From the NCBI RefSeq assembly GCF_001677475.2, contig NZ_CP015229.1: a stretch of 64,000 nucleotides of DNA. One strand, written 5' to 3'. Shown in pieces: positions 1 to 59,940 of the stretch. The translations under genes were made by a program, and so were the position numbers. Within the stretch, counting starts at the first letter, position 1, and every line of letters starts with the position of its first letter. A model generated the notes under the pieces. It made no database searches. It saw nothing but the letters and a program-made list of their open reading frames with translations, and had not been told where the DNA came from. This stretch comes from Escherichia coli. Lineage in GTDB: Bacteria; Pseudomonadota; Gammaproteobacteria; Enterobacterales; Enterobacteriaceae.

Positions 1-23
1 GCATCGTTAAAGGAACACGCCTG

Positions 24-647
24 ATGACGCCGTGGCTACTCTTTGGCGCAGGCGGAAAAGGTGTGGGTGCCAGAACGCTTGAACTGGCGCTGGCGGAACA
101 ACGTCCGGTCGTTGCTGTCATTCGTCATGCCGATGCCGCCACGAAACTGACGCAACAAGGCGTACAGGTTTTTACAGGCGACGCCTGTGATGCCAGCGTA
201 GTAGCGGCTGCTTGCCGCGCAGCTGGCCCGGATGCGCTTATCATCTCAACAATGGGAGGAGCTCAGGATTATCTGGCGCACAGAACAGTGATTGATGAGG
301 CCGAAAAGGCCGGCATCAGTCGCATGATTCTGGTGACCTCTTTGGGATGCGGCGATAGCTGGCCGTTTTTATCGGAGCGGGCAAAGGCTGCGTTTGGTCA
401 GGCGGTACGGGAAAAAACGCTGGCGGAAAGCTGGTTGCAAACCAGCCAGCTTGATTACGCCATTCTCCGCCCTGGCGGTCTGCTTGATGGGGCGGCAACG
501 GGCAAAGCACAACGGATACAAAATCAGGAGTGTCATGGTTTTGTTCACCGTGCCGATGTCGCCGCACATATCCATAAACTGGCAAATGCGCCAGCACTTA
601 ACCAGCAGGTCTACAGTCTGATTGAACCGGACCTGAAACCGGCGTGA
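24..647 (+). CDS. chuY: NAD(P)-binding reductase of the heme-utilisation cluster (ChuY-like), 207 aa
   Basis: Glycine-rich N-terminal motif (GAGGKGVG); size and position immediately upstream of a heme ABC permease/ATPase pair match the chuY-chuU-chuV arrangement. Assignment by synteny and recall, not alignment. Confidence 0.7.
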   Translation: MTPWLLFGAGGKGVGARTLELALAEQRPVVAVIRHADAATKLTQQGVQVFTGDACDASVVAAACRAAGPDALIISTMGGAQDYLAHRTVIDEAEKAGISRMILVTSLGCGDSWPFLSERAKAAFGQAVREKTLAESWLQTSQLDYAILRPGGLLDGAATGKAQRIQNQECHGFVHRADVAAHIHKLANAPALNQQVYSLIEPDLKPA

Positions 648-695
648 TCCCCCGGCGCGGCATGTCCGCGCCGTAATGTCGTAACGGAGTTTTGC

Positions 696-1688
696 GTGCT
701 CAAGGATTCACTCTCTTCCGCCAGGATCTTTATGGGGCTATCACTATTATTGCTAGCTCTGATGCTGTTCGGTGCCAGTCAGGGAGCGTTAAAGATCAGT
801 TTTGATGCCCTTTTTGATGAGGAATACCGCGATATCTGGCTCAATATTCGTCTACCACGGGTTTTGCTGGCGGTGCTGGTAGGTGCAGCGTTGGCAACCG
901 CAGGGGTAATTATGCAGGGGCTTTTTCGCAACCCAATGGCTGACCCTGGATTACTCGGCGTCAGTAGCGGTTCTGCATTAATGGTTGGCGTTGCTATTGT
1001 GCTGCCCTTCTCCTTCCCAGTGGTGCTGGTGCTCTATGAGCAAATGATGTTTGCCATTGCCGGAAGTTTAGTGGTCTGCACCATCATTTTTCTCATCACG
1101 CAGCGCCATCGCGATGGCAGCATGATGCAATTGTTACTCGCCGGTATCGCCATCAATGCCCTGTGCGGCGCAGCGATCGGCATCCTGAGCTATATCGGCG
1201 ATGAGCAGCAGCTACGACAACTCACATTGTGGATGATGGGCAATCTTGGACAGGCGCAATGGCCGACGTTATTGGTTGCCAGTTCATTCATCCTACCGGC
1301 CATTATCGCAACAACTTGTCTCGCCGGAACGCTGAATTTACTGCAGCTCGGTGATGAAGAAGCCCACTACCTCGGCGTGAACGTTAAGCGTAAACGCCAG
1401 CAATTACTGTTAGTGAGCTCACTGCTCGTTGGTGCTGCCGTATCGGTAAGCGGCATTATCGGCTTTATTGGCCTGGTGATCCCGCATCTGATTCGCATGA
1501 CTACCGGGGCAAATCACCGCTGGCTAATCCCTTGTTCCGCCCTCGCCGGAGCCTGTTTATTGCTGATGGCAGACACGCTTGCCCGCACGCTGGTACAGCC
1601 AGCAGAAATGCCCGTGGGATTATTAACCAGCCTGCTTGGTGGCCCTTATTTTATGTGGTTGATTCTGCGCAACCGGAGGATCACATGA
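696..1688 (+). CDS. chuU: Heme/iron-siderophore ABC transporter permease (FecCD family), 330 aa
   Basis: Polytopic hydrophobic protein with FecCD-type sequence; GTG start preceded by AACGGAG ribosome-binding site; stop overlaps the ATG of the next gene (ATGA). Confidence 0.85.
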
Positions 1689-2455
1689 TCAGCGCCCAGA
1701 ATCTGGTTTATAGCCTTCAGGGGCGGCGTCTGACTGACAATGTCTCGCTGACTTTTCCCGGTGGGGAAATTGTTGCCATTCTCGGCCCTAATGGTGCGGG
1801 AAAATCTACGCTGCTTCGCCAGTTAACCGGCTATCTTCAACCTGATAGCGGCGAATGTCGGTTGTTTAATAAGCCATTAAATGAATGGTCGATTACTGAA
1901 CTGGCGAAACACCGGGCCGTGATGCGTCAAAATAGCCACATGGCGTTTCCATTCAGCGTACAAGAAGTTATCCAGATGGGGCGGCATCCGCATCGTACTG
2001 GTAATCAGGATAATGAAACAGCACAAATAATGGCGTTATGTGACTGTCAGGCGTTAGCAAACCGCGACTATCGGCAATTATCCGGTGGTGAACAACAGCG
2101 CGTGCAATTAGCGCGCCTGCTGGTGCAACTCTGGGAACCTACTCCCTCACCGAAATGGTTATTTCTTGATGAACCAACTTCGGCGCTGGATATTCACCAT
2201 CAGCAGCACTTGTTCCGTTTATTACGCCAGTTAGTTCACGAACGGCAGTTCAATGTTTGCTGCGTATTGCACGATCTAAATCTTGCCGCACGTTATGCAG
2301 ACCGTATTGTATTAATGCAAAAAGGAAAGGTTATCGCAAATGGTAAACCGCAGGATGTATTGACACAGCAGGCGCTGACAATGCTCTACGGCGCGGATAT
2401 TACCGTACTTAAAGATCCTGCCAACCATTCACCACTGATCGTCCTCGATCATTAA
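1685..2455 (+). CDS. chuV: Heme ABC transporter ATP-binding protein, 256 aa
   Basis: Walker A (GPNGAGKST), ABC signature (LSGGEQQR), Walker B (LFLDEP); start trimmed from the ORF-track 1532 to the ATG at 1685 that overlaps the chuU stop. Confidence 0.85.
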
Positions 2456-2461
2456 AAGCAA

Positions 2462-2486
2462 CAGGAGTACCGCACTGGTACTCCTG
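2462..2486. terminator. GC-rich hairpin between convergent chuV and yhiD (caggagtac-cgcac-tggtactcctg)
   Basis: Perfect 9-bp inverted repeat seen directly in the sequence; flanking U-run is weak, so intrinsic-terminator function is inferred. Confidence 0.4.
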
Positions 2487-2506
2487 CGAATAAATAACTA
2501 TACAGA

Positions 2507-3154
2507 TTAGCTAATTGAAACGCCTTTCACCCCTGCCATACCTTTTAATAATCGCAACAGATCTTCTATCGACGTTGTGGCATGAAGCTGGATATCAATG
2601 GCGACCACTTCATGATCTTCATTTTCCTGCAACGAAACTAAATCAGTTTTTATTTTTTGCTGCTTAAACCAGTCGAGCATTGATACCGTATTACCGTTCA
2701 CTAATGTCAGCTGTAAATGGTAATTTTTGTTCATCAGGCGGAAGGTTAATTGATGGAAGACTTCCAGCACCAGTAAGGTCATCACTGAACCATAAATGCC
2801 CAGTTCGTACATACCGCTGCCAATAACCATACCAATGGCGGCGGTCACCCAGATATCCGCTGCCGTCGTCAGACCTACAATATTTTGGTTACGAACGAGA
2901 ATGTTACCTGCACCGATAAACCCGACGCCCGTCACCACCTGAGCAGCAATACGGCTGGGGTCCAGTCCGACGTGATCTAAAGACAGCACGTCAGCAAAAC
3001 CATATTTCGAAACAATCATAAACAGGGCGCTTCCCATGCCAATTAATACATGTGTGCGTAACCCTGCTCCTTTGCCGCGCATTTGCCTTTCCATGCCAAT
3101 AGCGCCACAGGCAATTGCCGCGAGTATAAGACGTATAATAAATTCTGCTGTCAT
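2507..3154 (-). CDS. yhiD: MgtC-family inner membrane protein YhiD, 215 aa
   Basis: Protein begins MTAEFIIRLILAAIACGAIGMERQ; start trimmed to that ATG (cat at 3152-3154 on +). Confidence 0.9.
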   Translation of the reverse strand: MTAEFIIRLILAAIACGAIGMERQMRGKGAGLRTHVLIGMGSALFMIVSKYGFADVLSLDHVGLDPSRIAAQVVTGVGFIGAGNILVRNQNIVGLTTAADIWVTAAIGMVIGSGMYELGIYGSVMTLLVLEVFHQLTFRLMNKNYHLQLTLVNGNTVSMLDWFKQQKIKTDLVSLQENEDHEVVAIDIQLHATTSIEDLLRLLKGMAGVKGVSIS

Positions 3155-3217
3155 ATAAAAATGCAAAAAGGAGCAGCAAGATGGCTCAACTTGCTACTCC
3201 TTTTTACTTGTACCTCA

Positions 3218-3544
3218 TTAATTCGGCAAGTCATTAGATGCTTGATTTTTGAAGGTATACAAATTTTTCTGCGGGTTTTTCTTGCAGTATTCGATCACTT
3301 TAGGAATTTGAGTGAGATCGGTTTCATTTAAAGTAACGGTATCGCCACCTTTATATACTGTTTCTTCATGCAGCATCCACCATGCAACCGGTGTCATTGC
3401 TTTTGGATTCAGATCAATAAATTCCTGGCAGGTCATATCTTTAGCGGATTCATTGGCTGCCAGCGCAGATTGTGCGTTCACCAGTGACAAAGCCGCTACA
3501 GCGCCCATAAAAATAAACGCTTTACGGAGAGATGAAATGTTCAT
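3218..3544 (-). CDS. hdeB: Periplasmic acid-stress chaperone HdeB, 108 aa
   Basis: Protein MNISSLRKAFIFMGAVAALSLVNAQSALA... recognised as HdeB; sits upstream-adjacent to hdeA on the same strand. Confidence 0.95.
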   Translation of the reverse strand: MNISSLRKAFIFMGAVAALSLVNAQSALAANESAKDMTCQEFIDLNPKAMTPVAWWMLHEETVYKGGDTVTLNETDLTQIPKVIEYCKKNPQKNLYTFKNQASNDLPN

Positions 3545-3659
3545 TTTGTAACCCATTCAATATAGAGATTATATACAAACAGGAGGAATAGCTGCTTTTA
3601 AAGAAGATATTCCGGCCTGTTCAATATGCAAGGAAATACAATGTAACGCATTCCCGGTA

Positions 3660-3992
3660 TTACATATCTTTCTTAATTTTGTCCCATTCGCCTTTAACTT
3701 TATCTTTAAAGCTGGCTTTTTTATCCTGAGTACAAGCCTGAACGATAGCTGGGGTTACGGTTGCAATACCCTGAACATCTAAAACCGCATCTTCTGGTTT
3801 ATCTTTGTTGTTCAGTGCTTCAGCAAAACCAACTGCAGTTGGCTGGAAGGATTCGTCCACAGCCAGGAAATCTTCACAGGTCCAGGAGTTGACCGGTTTT
3901 TTGTTATCAGCTGCTTTTTGTGCATCCGCTGCATTGCTCACTACTGGCAGAAGAAGCAGACCACCAAGAATAACGCCTAATACTTTTTTCAT
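3660..3992 (-). CDS. hdeA: Periplasmic acid-stress chaperone HdeA, 110 aa
   Basis: Protein MKKVLGVILGGLLLLPVVSNAADAQKAADNKKPVNSWTCEDFLAVDESFQP... recognised as HdeA. Confidence 0.95.
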   Translation of the reverse strand: MKKVLGVILGGLLLLPVVSNAADAQKAADNKKPVNSWTCEDFLAVDESFQPTAVGFAEALNNKDKPEDAVLDVQGIATVTPAIVQACTQDKKASFKDKVKGEWDKIKKDM

Positions 3993-4246
3993 CGTAATAT
4001 CCTCAACTATAAAGTGAAAGAGCCGTCACGAATCAATTTCGACACTGAGGTTATAACCTGGTTTTCTGTATATGTCATGTTGATGGAAAATATCAAAATC
4101 AGATATTTTTATTTCAATACAATGAGTTACAGATACATCAGATACTGTAATTAGGAAATTTTTATTAAATCGCCTGCATTCTTAGACGCGTTTTTGGCAT
4201 AGATTGATAGCAGGGGATTTTCTTCTTAATTTTATAGGGTGGTTCT

Positions 4247-4819
4247 ATGTTATATATAGATAAGGCAACAATTTTGAAGTTTGATCTGGAGATGCTGAAA
4301 AAGCATCGCAGAGCAATCCAGTTTATTGCCGTGCTACTGTTTATCGTCGGGTTGCTGTGTATCAGTTTCCCGTTCGTCTCTGGCGATATTTTAAGCACAG
4401 TAGTGGGTGCATTATTAATCTGCTCGGGCATTGCGCTTATTGTCGGGTTATTCAGCAACCGCAGTCATAATTTCTGGCCGGTATTATCCGGTTTCCTCGT
4501 CGCAGTCGCCTATTTATTGATCGGCTATTTCTTCATCCGCGCACCGGAGCTGGGCATTTTTGCCATTGCGGCATTTATTGCCGGTTTGTTCTGTGTTGCA
4601 GGGGTTATTCGCCTGATGAGTTGGTATCGTCAGCGTTCAATGAAAGGCAGCTGGCTACAGCTCGTTATTGGTGTGCTGGATATCGTCATTGCCTGGATAT
4701 TCCTTGGTGCAACGCCGATGGTGTCTGTAACTTTGGTTTCCACACTGGTGGGTATTGAACTGATATTTAGCGCCGCCAGCCTGTTCAGCTTCGCCAGTTT
4801 GTTCGTTAAGCAGCAATAA
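4247..4819 (+). CDS. hdeD: Acid-resistance inner membrane protein HdeD, 190 aa
   Basis: Hydrophobic 190-aa protein divergent from hdeAB; conserved position in the acid fitness island. Confidence 0.95.
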   Translation: MLYIDKATILKFDLEMLKKHRRAIQFIAVLLFIVGLLCISFPFVSGDILSTVVGALLICSGIALIVGLFSNRSHNFWPVLSGFLVAVAYLLIGYFFIRAPELGIFAIAAFIAGLFCVAGVIRLMSWYRQRSMKGSWLQLVIGVLDIVIAWIFLGATPMVSVTLVSTLVGIELIFSAASLFSFASLFVKQQ

Positions 4820-5617: not shown

Positions 5618-6145
5618 ATGATTTTTCTCATGACGAAAGATTCTTTTCTTTTACAGGGCTTTTGGCAGTTGAAAGATAATCACGAAATGATAAAAATCAA
5701 TTCCCTGTCAGAGATCAAAAAAGTAGGCAATAAACCCTTCAAGGTTATCATTGATACCTATCACAATCATATCCTTGATGAAGAAGCGATTAAATTTCTG
5801 GAGAAATTAGATGCCGAGAGAATTATTGTTTTGGCACCTTATCACATCAGTAAACTAAAAGCTAAAGCGCCTATTTATTTTGTCAGCCGCAAAGAAAGCA
5901 TCAAAAATCTTCTTGAGATTACTTATGGTAAACACTTGCCCCATAAGAATTCACAATTATGTTTTTCACATAATCAGTTCAAAATTATGCAACTGATTCT
6001 GAAAAATAAAAATGAAAGCAATATCACGTCGACGCTCAATATTTCGCAACAAACATTAAAGATTCAGAAATTCAACATTATGTACAAGCTGAAACTAAGA
6101 CGTATGAGCGACATCGTCACCCTGGGTATCACATCTTATTTTTAG
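5618..6145 (+). CDS. gadE: LuxR-family acid-resistance activator GadE, 175 aa
   Basis: Protein MIFLMTKDSFLLQGFWQLKDNHEM...; ATG at 5618 preceded by AAGGAG; the ORF-track start at 5540 is an upstream extension. Confidence 0.95.
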   Translation: MIFLMTKDSFLLQGFWQLKDNHEMIKINSLSEIKKVGNKPFKVIIDTYHNHILDEEAIKFLEKLDAERIIVLAPYHISKLKAKAPIYFVSRKESIKNLLEITYGKHLPHKNSQLCFSHNQFKIMQLILKNKNESNITSTLNISQQTLKIQKFNIMYKLKLRRMSDIVTLGITSYF

Positions 6146-11870: not shown

Positions 11871-12116
11871 GACTATCCCTTATATTTCATTACTGCGATT
11901 ATTTCAATTTCAGTATACTAATGAAATGATGCCAGACTGTTTCTTCGTGCAAAAACTGCCATATTTGGTAGGACCAAAATTTATCCACAAAGTAGTTTTG
12001 CATAACATTTAATTGATAATAAGTAAATGCAACACGAATATATTTTCACACGGCGTATAGCTTATGTTTATAAAAAAATGGCTGATCTTATTTCCAGTAA
12101 AAGTTATATTTAACTT

Positions 12117-12238: not shown

Positions 12239-13063
12239 CTACAATCTTATTCCTTCCGCAGAACGGTCAGTGCCGTAAAAATTCCCTTGTGCAACAATAC
12301 TTGCCGCCGAGTCACGGTTCGGCAATCCCTGCGCTGATCGCTCCTGATACTCTGTGGGCGTCATCCCATAATAATTTCGAAAAACGAAAATGAAATACGA
12401 CACGCTGTGATATCCACAGGACACTGCAACTCGCTTAATTGAAAAACCATGTATAACAATAAGTTGCAAAGCACGTTGCATTCTACACTCAGTAAGCAAC
12501 TGTGAATATGATGTCTCTTCTTCGCGCAATTTTTTCTTTAACAGGCTTGGACTCATCAACAGCTCGCTGGCGATTCGGGCTAGTGTCCACTCATGTGCGA
12601 TATTATTATTGATAACCGTACAAACTCGTGTTCGCATGTTCGGTTGCAAAACGTTCAGAAGTAGCGGTATAAACTGCTCATCCTCCAGAAAAACAGATAA
12701 CAGCGCAAAGATTAATGCTCTTTTACGTAGCGTTTCTGCATAGCGAAGATTCTTATTCTGCGATAGTTGCGCAACTTCCTGAAAAACAGGAATATCTCTG
12801 GTACAGTGATGAACGAGTAATGAAGGAACTTTTTTATGTGCATGAAGTTTTAATGCCTCCTCCTTGAGCATCGGGAGAAATAATGAAAGCGTATCCCTTG
12901 AAACTAATACGAAATGTTCAACACACTTATCTACTCGAATTTGGCTTGCATCCGCAAAAACCAGATCACCGCCATTAAAATAGCGATATTCACCATTAAC
13001 CATGGTGAGAATATATTTATGTCTTGCGTACGCAATTAGACAATTCCCATGTAGTGATTGCAT
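12239..13063 (-). CDS. gadX: AraC-family acid-resistance regulator GadX, 274 aa
   Basis: Protein MQSLHGNCLIAYARHKYILTMVNGEYRYF...; TAG stop verified at 12239-12241. Confidence 0.95.
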   Translation of the reverse strand: MQSLHGNCLIAYARHKYILTMVNGEYRYFNGGDLVFADASQIRVDKCVEHFVLVSRDTLSLFLPMLKEEALKLHAHKKVPSLLVHHCTRDIPVFQEVAQLSQNKNLRYAETLRKRALIFALLSVFLEDEQFIPLLLNVLQPNMRTRVCTVINNNIAHEWTLARIASELLMSPSLLKKKLREEETSYSQLLTECRMQRALQLIVIHGFSIKRVAVSCGYHSVSYFIFVFRNYYGMTPTEYQERSAQGLPNRDSAASIVAQGNFYGTDRSAEGIRL

Positions 13064-55274: not shown

Positions 55275-55854
55275 TATTCTGCTCCAATTGTGATGTTTGT
55301 TGTTTTAACCCTTTGCAGTGGGTTGTCGCTGCCTGACCTTTTTTGTTTTTTACCCGGTCGGGTCAACGTTATGAGGTGGGGATGCCGTACTAATTAACAT
55401 CAGTGTAACAGTGCGGATCCTCCATAAAATGCCCCTCGTGACCTACAATCTGTCAACAGAATGTGAAAACGTCAATACAGCCAACCGGGATTTACACCAA
55501 CGGTGAGAATCCACAAACAAAGATTAAAAAAACTTCAAACAGCTATTTGCAGCAGAGAAATTTGTGCTACTCCAACATGACCAGAACAATCAGCTTAATA
55601 TTTAGCAACATTTGGTGATTAAGTTTTATGCATTTAGTGAAAAAAATCTGAGGAAAAGGTGGATATCTGAGCGATTAATACCATGAACGCTAAAACGCAC
55701 AGCGGAAAATGCCAGCGCCAGCCATAAGTAACGCAATAATAGATTTAAGCAAATATAAAAAAAGACAATGGTTTCTGTCACAAATCCGTTAATGGATAGT
55801 GAGATATGGGGCGCAAATTTGGCAGGGAAATGTGTGATGTGTAGGTCGAATAAG

Positions 55855-55929
55855 GTGTTCACGCCGCATCCGACAATGGGCCGGCACATTTGCCTGATGC
55901 GACGCTGGCGCGTCTTATCAGGCCTAGGT
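55855..55929. repeat. REP extragenic palindromes
   Basis: GTGTTCACGCCGCATCCGACA and GCCTGATGCGACGCTGGCGCGTCTTATCAGGCC units seen directly. Confidence 0.75.
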
Positions 55930-56262
<333 letters not shown>

Positions 56263-56353
56263 AATGCGGGGCGCATCTTACTGCGCAGATACGCCCTCGT
56301 CAATCCCTTAATAGCAAAATGCCTTTTGATCGGCGAGAAAGTCAGCAGGCCTC

Positions 56354-58333: not shown

Positions 58334-58864
58334 TCATTCATACTCGACAGAAAAGTTGACCAATGCATTTGCAGTGCCGGATGTTGCATTGGCATTCACC
58401 ACCACATAACTTGCGACGTAATGAAGTTGAGATGTTACACCAGTCACCGGCCACTCGATTGCCCCCCCACCACTTACTTTCGGAATTTGTTGTGTGCCCT
58501 TGCTATCCACAATTTTAAGGGCAACACCTATTGCTCCTCCCGAATCCAGGGAAAAAAGCGAGGAATCATTCGTATCAGGAATACCGTCCATTGTGACTTT
58601 TGCCTTAATAGTGCCATCACAATCTTTCAAGTCGATCACAAAACCCTGTTCGTTTAAGACCCTTCCAACCGAAACCGGTTTCATCAGCGTCATTTTCCCC
58701 ATATCAACTTCCAGATCAGATGACTCAAACTCACATCCTTTTGCCACAACAGCAAGAGAGAATGTCAGCTTTCCTACCTCACCCAGGCTGGTTTTGGCTT
58801 CTACATTGATACAGCTTGTCAGGGCTAAAAGCGGAAATAAAATGAGCAATATATTCCTTCGCAT
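58334..58864 (-). CDS. lpfE: Fimbrial minor subunit, 176 aa
   Basis: Signal peptide (MRRNILLILFPLLALTSCINVEA) and fimbrial-subunit-like C-terminus ending ...ALVNFSVEYE; last gene of the operon. Confidence 0.75.
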   Translation of the reverse strand: MRRNILLILFPLLALTSCINVEAKTSLGEVGKLTFSLAVVAKGCEFESSDLEVDMGKMTLMKPVSVGRVLNEQGFVIDLKDCDGTIKAKVTMDGIPDTNDSSLFSLDSGGAIGVALKIVDSKGTQQIPKVSGGGAIEWPVTGVTSQLHYVASYVVVNANATSGTANALVNFSVEYE

Positions 58865-58869
58865 TGCTA

Positions 58870-59925
58870 TTACTCCATATCCAGAAAAATCGTCGCAACA
58901 CCACTGTATTGTCCGGTCGCAGGAGCATTTCCTGTCGTGCTAATGGGTTCCGCTTTTAACTTAACTGTCGCGGCGCGATGCTGTTGGGAATCATTCTGAC
59001 CCAGAGTTAAGTTTGTGCTACTATTTGCATCATTAGGCTTCAGAATATTACCGTTTGTATCCTTCACCAATACACCAATATCCGGGTTCCCCATATCGAT
59101 AGCCCGAGAATCAGCCTGGTTTGATGTGCCTTCAATCCTTAGAGAAACCTGAATTCCATTAGCAATATTCTCACAATCAAACTGGAGAGCAATTTCTTTC
59201 TCCGTTCCACCGTCTGGCATAGCACCTCGTTTATTTTTAAATGCGGAAGGTGAAAATTCACCAAAAGGGACATCCAGCACAGTTCCCGCATTAATTTCAC
59301 AACCTTGTGAGAAACGTAATTTACCTGCAATACTGACGGTAGAAAGTGGGTCTCTATAGGTATTTTTTTTCTTTGAAGCATATAATGTTGCAATTTGTGT
59401 ATAGGGTATTTCAGCTTCACCCTGAATAGGTTTTGCAATATAAAAAGACAGATAACCATCGCTACCAAACTGGCCTAAATTTTTTCCCACACAATCTTGA
59501 GATGCGTTATTTAAATTAGGAACCGGTGCATTATTCGCTGGCACAGCGATATACATACTTGGCCCTTGAATCATTGTCATCACTTCCAGTTCTTCGGTTA
59601 ACCGGTAGTATTGCTCACTGTTTATTTTTCGCGTTGCCGTAGATAAGTTACTCACGGTTTTAATTAGTGTCTCCTTTTCCGTTTTATAAGTATCAGGGCA
59701 CTCACAAATAAAGCTAAAAGGCTGCCCAACACCAGCCCATGAGTAAAGTAATCTTAATAAAGTACCCGCTTTATTTTTGCTGGCATCCATAATATCAATA
59801 TCAAATTTGACTGGGTAATCATGAACCCCTGAAGTCGATGTACATGGTCCCCAATCAGCAGCTATCGCATTATTAGCTGAAAACATTATAATTGCTGAAA
59901 AGAATAGCTTTAATATTGTCATCAT
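58870..59925 (-). CDS. lpfD: Fimbrial tip adhesin-like subunit, 351 aa
   Basis: Signal peptide, two-domain size typical of tip adhesins, C-terminal pilin-like strand (...GVATIFLDME). Confidence 0.75.
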   Translation of the reverse strand: MMTILKLFFSAIIMFSANNAIAADWGPCTSTSGVHDYPVKFDIDIMDASKNKAGTLLRLLYSWAGVGQPFSFICECPDTYKTEKETLIKTVSNLSTATRKINSEQYYRLTEELEVMTMIQGPSMYIAVPANNAPVPNLNNASQDCVGKNLGQFGSDGYLSFYIAKPIQGEAEIPYTQIATLYASKKKNTYRDPLSTVSIAGKLRFSQGCEINAGTVLDVPFGEFSPSAFKNKRGAMPDGGTEKEIALQFDCENIANGIQVSLRIEGTSNQADSRAIDMGNPDIGVLVKDTNGNILKPNDANSSTNLTLGQNDSQQHRAATVKLKAEPISTTGNAPATGQYSGVATIFLDME

Positions 59926-59940
59926 CTTATCCCTCCCTGG

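Follow-up and report, generated by a model that had tools for sequence, protein, structure and literature searches.

The genes that lie beside yhiD differ among strains of Escherichia coli. K-12 carries slp, dctR and, on the opposite strand, yhiD, with the convergent stop codons of dctR and yhiD 41 bp apart. The DNA analysed here, a stretch of 64,000 nucleotides from the E. coli contig NZ_CP015229.1 (the window), begins with three other genes, the last of which converges with yhiD. A preliminary description of the window, made from its letters, took these genes for the distal end of the chuTWXYUV heme-utilisation operon, and named slp and dctR as the genes directly upstream of yhiD in K-12, an order that the comparison with K-12 has borne out. 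The locus thus raises the questions of what the three genes encode, where exactly the sequence departs from that of K-12, and which of the two arrangements is the older one. We find that positions 1-2506 are almost certainly the distal part of the locus for heme utilisation known as chu/shu (O-island 140), which lies at its standard site inside the acid fitness island, between dctR (yhiF) and yhiD, and nothing in the analysis contradicts the chu identification.

Identity and predicted function of the genes

Positions 1-3600 were read using a listing of the open reading frames together with direct inspection of the sequence, and the features recognised are collected in Table 1. The genes follow the order chuX-chuY-chuU-chuV, in reading frames that either overlap or adjoin one another: direct reading of the sequence shows that the chuX stop overlaps the chuY ATG by 1 nt, and the chuV ATG (1685-1687) lies over the chuU TGA (1686-1688) in a 4-bp ATGA overlap. 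The ChuY-like reductase, the FecCD-type permease and the overlapping ABC ATPase of the preliminary description are therefore all present. In a collinear comparison with the best relative, CFSAN061771, the end of hutX at 12024 is equivalent to window position 24. The convergent gene yhiD, whose product covers the NCBIfam model NF007431 over residues 1-215 of 215 (401.7 bits, cutoff 214), is a gene of the acid fitness island that flanks the chu block and lies outside it.

Table 1. Features of the window that bear on the chu locus and on the type of host
Feature	Position	Strand	Basis
chuX/hutX 3' end (cytosolic heme carrier)	1..24	+	stop TGA 22-24; cut by window edge
chuY, NAD(P)H-dependent anaerobilin reductase, 207 aa	24..647	+	PDB, Pfam, RefSeq matches
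chuU/shuU, heme ABC importer permease, 330 aa, GTG start	696..1688	+	HmuU match, Pfam, RefSeq
chuV/hmuV, heme ABC importer ATPase, 256 aa	1685..2455	+	NCBIfam NF010068, HmuV match
G+C-rich hairpin, 10-11 bp stem, 5-nt loop	2462..2486	-	terminator scan, folding
Right breakpoint of chu block vs K-12-type genomes	2501..2502	.	chu-negative alignments, junction comparison
yhiD, MgtC/SapB-family inner-membrane protein, 215 aa	2507..3154	-	NCBIfam NF007431, RefSeq
bcsQ, intact, 250 codons	42477-43229	-	NF007460, 540 bits
lpfABCDE, adjoins eptB	58334-63830	-	LpfA NF011756, LpfC NF011754

The product of chuY has the Rossmann motif GAGGKGVG at its N-terminus and matches the Pfam NAD(P)H-binding Rossmann domain NAD_binding_10 at 6e-37. 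In a PDB sequence search its residues 1-207, i.e. the full length, matched entries 5guy and 5ffq with E of about 1e-133; the former is the crystallised ChuY of E. coli CFT073, which is essentially identical to the window protein, and the latter is ShuY-like. The permease belongs to the FecCD/BtuC-type class of type II importers (Pfam FecCD, 1.5e-95), and its PDB match to HmuU of Yersinia pestis (4g1u_A) scores 431 bits, followed by 236 bits for a Burkholderia heme permease. The ATPase contains the Walker motifs, with LFLDEP as Walker B, and the signature LSGGE in its translation; it passes the NCBIfam equivalog for heme ABC ATPases, NF010068, with 395.5 bits (cutoff 261), and scores 322 bits against HmuV (4g1u_C). 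In RefSeq, the matching DNA of other genomes is named 'anaerobilin reductase' at chuY, ShuU/ChuU at the permease gene and heme ABC ATPase at chuV, followed by yhiD.

It could be supposed that we are dealing with a different ABC system for iron or a cofactor, namely a paralogue of the Fec, Fhu, Fep or Btu type with no more than a resemblance to chu, since the permease is a generic FecCD-family protein that reaches no NCBIfam equivalog cutoff and scores best with the BtuC model (283 bits, cutoff 334). Its assignment to heme is thus based on the match to HmuU, on its name in RefSeq and on the context of the operon. We give this alternative practically no chance. The 431 bits of the permease against HmuU compare with 185-189 bits against FhuB and BtuC, and the 322 bits of the ATPase against HmuV compare with 165 bits against FhuC. 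Furthermore, the ATPase exceeds the cutoff of the heme equivalog but stays below those of FecE (192 bits, cutoff 375), FhuC (182, cutoff 433) and BtuD (174, cutoff 281), while FecC (217, cutoff 396), FecD (215, cutoff 406) and the FhuB models (216 bits or less, cutoffs 554 and above) are likewise not reached. The gene next to those of the transporter is ChuY itself, and the RefSeq annotation and the synteny of the full locus both agree with chu and argue against a paralogue. Thus the NCBIfam cutoffs and PDB sequence searches rule out a Fec, Fhu or Btu identity, and the alignment to ChuY, ChuU and ChuV/HmuV, which had been posed beforehand as the deciding test, favours chu. By their sequences, ChuU and ChuV are classed as subunits of an HmuUV-type heme importer, and they stand nearer to that type than to the Fec, Fhu or Btu systems.

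The window begins 24 nt before chuY, and chuA, chuS, chuT, chuW, the promoters and the left junction were read from relatives only. In CFSAN061771 the complete order is slp, dctR, chuS(-), chuA(-), chuT, chuW, chuX, chuY, chuU, chuV and yhiD(-), with hdeB(-), hdeA(-), hdeD, gadE, mdtEF, gadW, gadX and gadA beyond yhiD. The proteins encoded by such a locus would form a complete route for heme. ChuA, a TonB-dependent receptor, would bring heme across the outer membrane, and in the periplasm ChuT would bind and carry it. Uptake into the cytoplasm would be driven by ATP hydrolysis through ChuU2V2, which is a type II ABC importer like HmuUV and BtuCD, and ChuS and ChuX would bind and handle the heme there. 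ChuW, a radical-SAM methyltransferase, would open the ring anaerobically to yield iron and anaerobilin, and ChuY would reduce the anaerobilin with NADPH. The biochemistry of ChuW and ChuY, and the enzymology of ChuY, are given in PMC10404700 and references therein. For the window, we infer heme transport and anaerobilin reduction from the near-identity of the encoded proteins to the characterised ones.

No Fur-box-like site of at least 13/19 was detected in window 1-2600, and no sigma-70-like site on the plus strand in window 1-4300, so that an internal Fur box or promoter for chuU was rejected. In the chuA-chuT intergenic region of CFSAN061771, on the other hand, two Fur-box-like sites match the consensus at 17/19 and 16/19 positions (a consensus match only), where 0.66 sites of at least 13/19 are expected in shuffled sequences. 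Taken together, these observations make co-transcription from the chuT promoter likely, and chuY, chuU and chuV are most likely transcribed from a presumably Fur-controlled chuT promoter upstream of the window. A candidate hairpin between chuY and chuU (653-673) is not claimed as a real element, given that the 56-nt stretch 645-700 folds no better than shuffled sequences (z = -0.9). All reading frames are intact, and the differences between the window and its relatives are mostly synonymous; in chuV, synonymous and non-synonymous differences number 5 and 0 against CFSAN061771, and 47 and 9 against a more divergent Escherichia genome (L004, see below). This pattern fits functional genes that are maintained by purifying selection.

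The junction with yhiD

The exact K-12 breakpoint, which the preliminary description had proposed to locate by alignment, falls between window positions 2501 and 2502: the sequence common to K-12-type genomes begins at 2502 (ACAGATTAGC...), 5 nt beyond the yhiD stop. Base-level comparison of K-12 with CFSAN061771, whose junction sequence is identical to that of the window, places the left breakpoint directly after the TGA stop of dctR. Between the two breakpoints, chu-positive genomes carry 9,059 bp, comprising chuS-chuA and chuTWXYUV, whereas K-12 carries 36 bp (ATTTCAGGCTTACGGTGAGTCTGGCTACGCTGCCAC) unrelated to the block. When this filler was aligned locally with the 9,059-bp block, on either strand, the top score was 12; shuffled sequences averaged 11.8 and reached up to 17. 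A derivation of the filler from the chu block, with a score at chance and no detectable relation, was accordingly discarded.

The spacer between the chuV and yhiD stops measures 51 bp and holds the 25-bp hairpin that had been noticed as joining the ATPase gene to yhiD. The hairpin has a perfect 10-bp stem, spans 25 nt in total, and begins 6 nt after the chuV stop, in DNA specific to the chu block and outside the sequence shared with K-12. On the plus strand it folds with -17.9 kcal/mol (z = -5.6), and 0/200 shuffled sequences fold as well; the second folding value is -19.4 kcal/mol (z = -4.6). It is retained with a single loop change in two divergent Escherichia loci (L004 and L027), and the K-12 filler contains no comparably stable structure (z = -0.9 and 0.05).

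The consensus terminator scan reported the hairpin on the minus strand only, with the tail UGCUUUUAAU; its plus-strand tail, CGAAUAAAUAAC, is A-rich and has no U-run. As the form of an intrinsic terminator is found on the minus strand only, the hairpin, although it is borne by the island, more plausibly terminates the hdeAB-yhiD transcript than that of chu. That it serves chiefly as a plus-strand terminator of the chu operon, or is truly bidirectional, is a reading we regard as possible, if the less probable of the two: the hairpin stands only 6 nt behind chuV and is equally stable on the plus strand, and convergent genes often have one hairpin in common, but both the tail without a U-run and the strand chosen by the consensus scan speak against it.

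If the hairpin does terminate hdeAB-yhiD, chu-positive strains would have placed the terminator of this acid-response transcript within chu DNA, head-on with the iron-regulated chuV, and convergent transcription could couple the iron and acid responses. We regard such a coupling as highly speculative and quite improbable. Were it true, the two alleles would differ in the 3'-end formation of hdeAB-yhiD or in antisense read-through, besides heme uptake, and K-12-type strains would have exchanged a terminator element for an unrelated 36-bp filler without a terminator-like hairpin.

Distribution of the two alleles and their order of descent

Window 1-4000 was compared by megablast with 5,426 complete E. 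coli genomes. The occupied form, i.e. an end-to-end match at 98-99% identity, was found in 2,235 of the 5,426 (41%), in which chuY, shuU/chuU, the heme ABC ATPase gene, yhiD, hdeB and hdeA are annotated, and essentially all other genomes align from query base 2502 onward only. The K-12 junction, used as a query, is contiguous in 3,179/5,426 genomes, and the two alleles together account for 5,414/5,426. Chance is no issue for the arrangement, as the 4-kb end-to-end alignment recurs in 2,235 genomes. The closest complete genome has 99.1% identity over window 1-4000 and differs at 25 of the 2,501 bases of the chu part; in four window segments searched by megablast, no complete E. coli genome exceeded 99.1% identity.

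The gene chuA is a marker in Clermont PCR phylotyping, being present in phylogroups B2, D, E and F and absent from A and B1, and the 41% frequency of chu fits this phylogroup pattern. From the chu tail together with lpf and an intact bcsQ, the preliminary description had deduced a non-K-12 host with pathogen-associated accessory content. Both lpfABCDE and an undamaged bcsQ are indeed present (Table 1), and the host is not of the K-12 type; 'pathogen-associated', however, overstates the case because the block occurs in 41% of complete E. coli genomes.

To place the two alleles in order, one genome per species (GTDB) was scanned with ChuY, and the proteins of the neighbouring genes were then used in tblastn. 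Two representatives of divergent Escherichia species, L004 and L027, both deposited as 'E. coli' and having 93% and 89% nucleotide identity to the window, respectively, carry slp-dctR-chuSA-chuTWXYUV-yhiD-hdeBA at the same site. E. albertii has the same site and order but no yhiD, and its chuV is directly followed by the hdeB terminator. Because other Escherichia species carry the block at the same site, retention by the host and loss by K-12 are most likely. On parsimony only, and with three outgroup genomes, the most parsimonious account has the block already present in the ancestor of E. coli and E. albertii, with the 36-bp junction of the K-12 type arising by secondary loss or replacement. 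It should be mentioned that such a distribution could likewise result from horizontal transfer combined with gene conversion (PMC5799925).

The opposite order, in which the chu block was recently inserted by horizontal transfer into a K-12-like dctR-yhiD spacer in pathogenic lineages and the empty site is ancestral, is suggested by the contrast between 50.3% G+C in the block and 38.6% in the flanking DNA of the acid fitness island, and by the presence of the block in only 41% of E. coli genomes. In addition, donors exist, as chuTWXYUV operons occupy other sites in Citrobacter, Kluyvera, Klebsiella and Raoultella, and the block has been termed an 'insertion' (PMC10540162). We nevertheless consider a recent insertion unlikely. 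The E. coli genome average is about 50.8% G+C, close to that of the block, so that the compositional outlier is the acid fitness island and not chu. The same block, site and conserved junction hairpin are found in lineages as divergent as L004 and L027, and the block and site also in E. albertii. Moreover, the K-12 allele is more than a plain empty site, as its junction holds 36 bp absent from occupied genomes, and the identical filler in all 3,179 empty genomes fits one event. No direct repeats were found at either end of the block, and the annotation of CFSAN061771 shows neither an integrase nor an IS element nor a tRNA within or next to it, which together with the location of the low G+C in the flanks led us to reject a classical mobile genomic island as well. 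Ancestral presence of the block, followed by loss or replacement in K-12-type strains, is therefore the reading that we prefer.

Relation to known heme-uptake loci

The chu/shu locus, its position between dctR and yhiD and its patchy distribution have been known since 1998 (PMC5799925, PMC10540162, PMC9144400), and the arrangement in the window is an ordinary strain difference from K-12. The shu locus was first described in Shigella dysenteriae, according to the citation of Wyckoff et al. 1998 in PMC5799925; the same paper reports the co-location of chu with the acid fitness island in O157:H7 and E. albertii. As O-island 140, the chu cluster has been described as 'inserted between yhiF and yhiD' in O157:H7, EAEC 042 and other strains (PMC10540162); for the acid fitness island, lengths of about 22.7 kb (EDL933) and 13.6 kb (MG1655) have been given (PMC9144400). 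The chu tail does abut yhiD and does extend the acid fitness island, as had been proposed, but from within, between dctR and yhiD, and not at one edge: the block enlarges the island from the inside, so that its length of about 13.6 kb becomes about 22.7 kb (PMC9144400).

To this picture the present analysis makes small additions, namely base-exact breakpoints, a census of the two alleles (2,235 versus 3,179 genomes), the minus-strand terminator form of the hairpin, and the occurrence of the chu-yhiD junction in divergent species of Escherichia, which speaks for loss in K-12-type strains. For annotation purposes, the host can be assigned to an E. coli lineage that is chu-positive and not of the K-12 type, and that has a predicted heme-iron route including the anaerobic ChuW/ChuY branch.

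Operons of the chuTWXYUV type in Citrobacter, Kluyvera, Klebsiella and Raoultella have the same six genes in the same order, with 74-90% protein identity. In their flanks, up to 10 kb on each side where the contig permitted, neither a close homologue of ChuA or ChuS nor any of the genes slp, dctR, yhiD and hde was detected; these operons are therefore taken to sit at other chromosomal sites. HmuTUV of Yersinia pestis (4g1u) has the same type II ABC importer architecture as ChuUV; it is the orthologue from another genus, and its hmu locus has a different genomic context in Yersinia, where it is not embedded in an acid-resistance island. The chu locus of O157:H7 and CFT073 (O-island 140), by contrast, which is the shu locus of Shigella dysenteriae, has the same genes, order, overlaps and dctR/yhiF-yhiD position as the locus studied here, and the DNA of CFT073 is 98.6% identical to window 1-4000, which amounts to allelic divergence only, with no difference in kind.

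Conservation of chuTWXYUV, and the junction of the chu block

The chuTWXYUV operon is kept in several genera of the Enterobacteriaceae, with 74-90% protein identity in the Citrobacter, Kluyvera, Klebsiella and Raoultella loci (L006-L034), and no close homologue of ChuA or ChuS was found near the operon in any of these loci, in flanks of up to 10 kb per side as far as the contigs reached. Furthermore, the receptor encoded upstream in two Kluyvera loci is only 24% identical. Since the operon is thus retained without a close ChuA or ChuS nearby, and the Kluyvera receptors are so distant, the transport/degradation module seems to have had a history separate from that of the receptor module.

At the yhiD side, the E. 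albertii locus (L005, positions 12430-12500) contains neither yhiD nor the hairpin found on the chuV side in the window; instead, chuV is directly followed by a hairpin similar to the window's hdeB-yhiD hairpin (about 3166-3200). The absence of yhiD from E. albertii has been reported (PMC5799925), and L005 agrees with it. As for the genomes that lack the chu block, all 3,179 share an identical 36-bp filler in the dctR-yhiD spacer (positions 5965-6000 of the K-12 locus, L002), for which no source was detectable within the chu block.

Hairpin, repeat and ORF features of the window

The hairpin in the chuY-chuU gap is not followed by a T-run, and the 56-nt stretch that holds it (645-700) folds no better than its shuffles (z = -0.9). 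It could be an element of mRNA processing or stability, or nothing. The 225-aa ORF, which overlaps the tRNA-Pro(CGG) gene, is probably spurious. In the megablast search, window 20000-44000 had 30 matching places in the median genome, and therefore contains a short dispersed repeat, which is probably of the REP/BIME type.

Coordinates of window features, and identity of window segments to 5,426 complete E. coli genomes (megablast)
Feature	Window position	Description
Hairpin CGGCGCGG-CATGT-CCGCGCCG	653-673	8-bp stem, all G/C; in 48-bp chuY-chuU gap
225-aa ORF	55626-56303	minus strand
tRNA-Pro(CGG) gene	56186-56262	
Segment	1-4000	best identity 99.1%
Segment	4000-20000	best identity 98.7%
Segment	20000-44000	best identity 98.5%
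Segment	44000-64000	only ~92.6%, mean over joined pieces including the lpf operon

Lineage of the host

No close match to the whole window was found among the 5,426 complete E. coli genomes searched segment by segment. The host seems to belong to a poorly represented chu+ lpf+ lineage, and its lpf allele looks divergent. A relative, DCE7, differs from the window in carrying a hipA-like insertion between yhjV and dppF.
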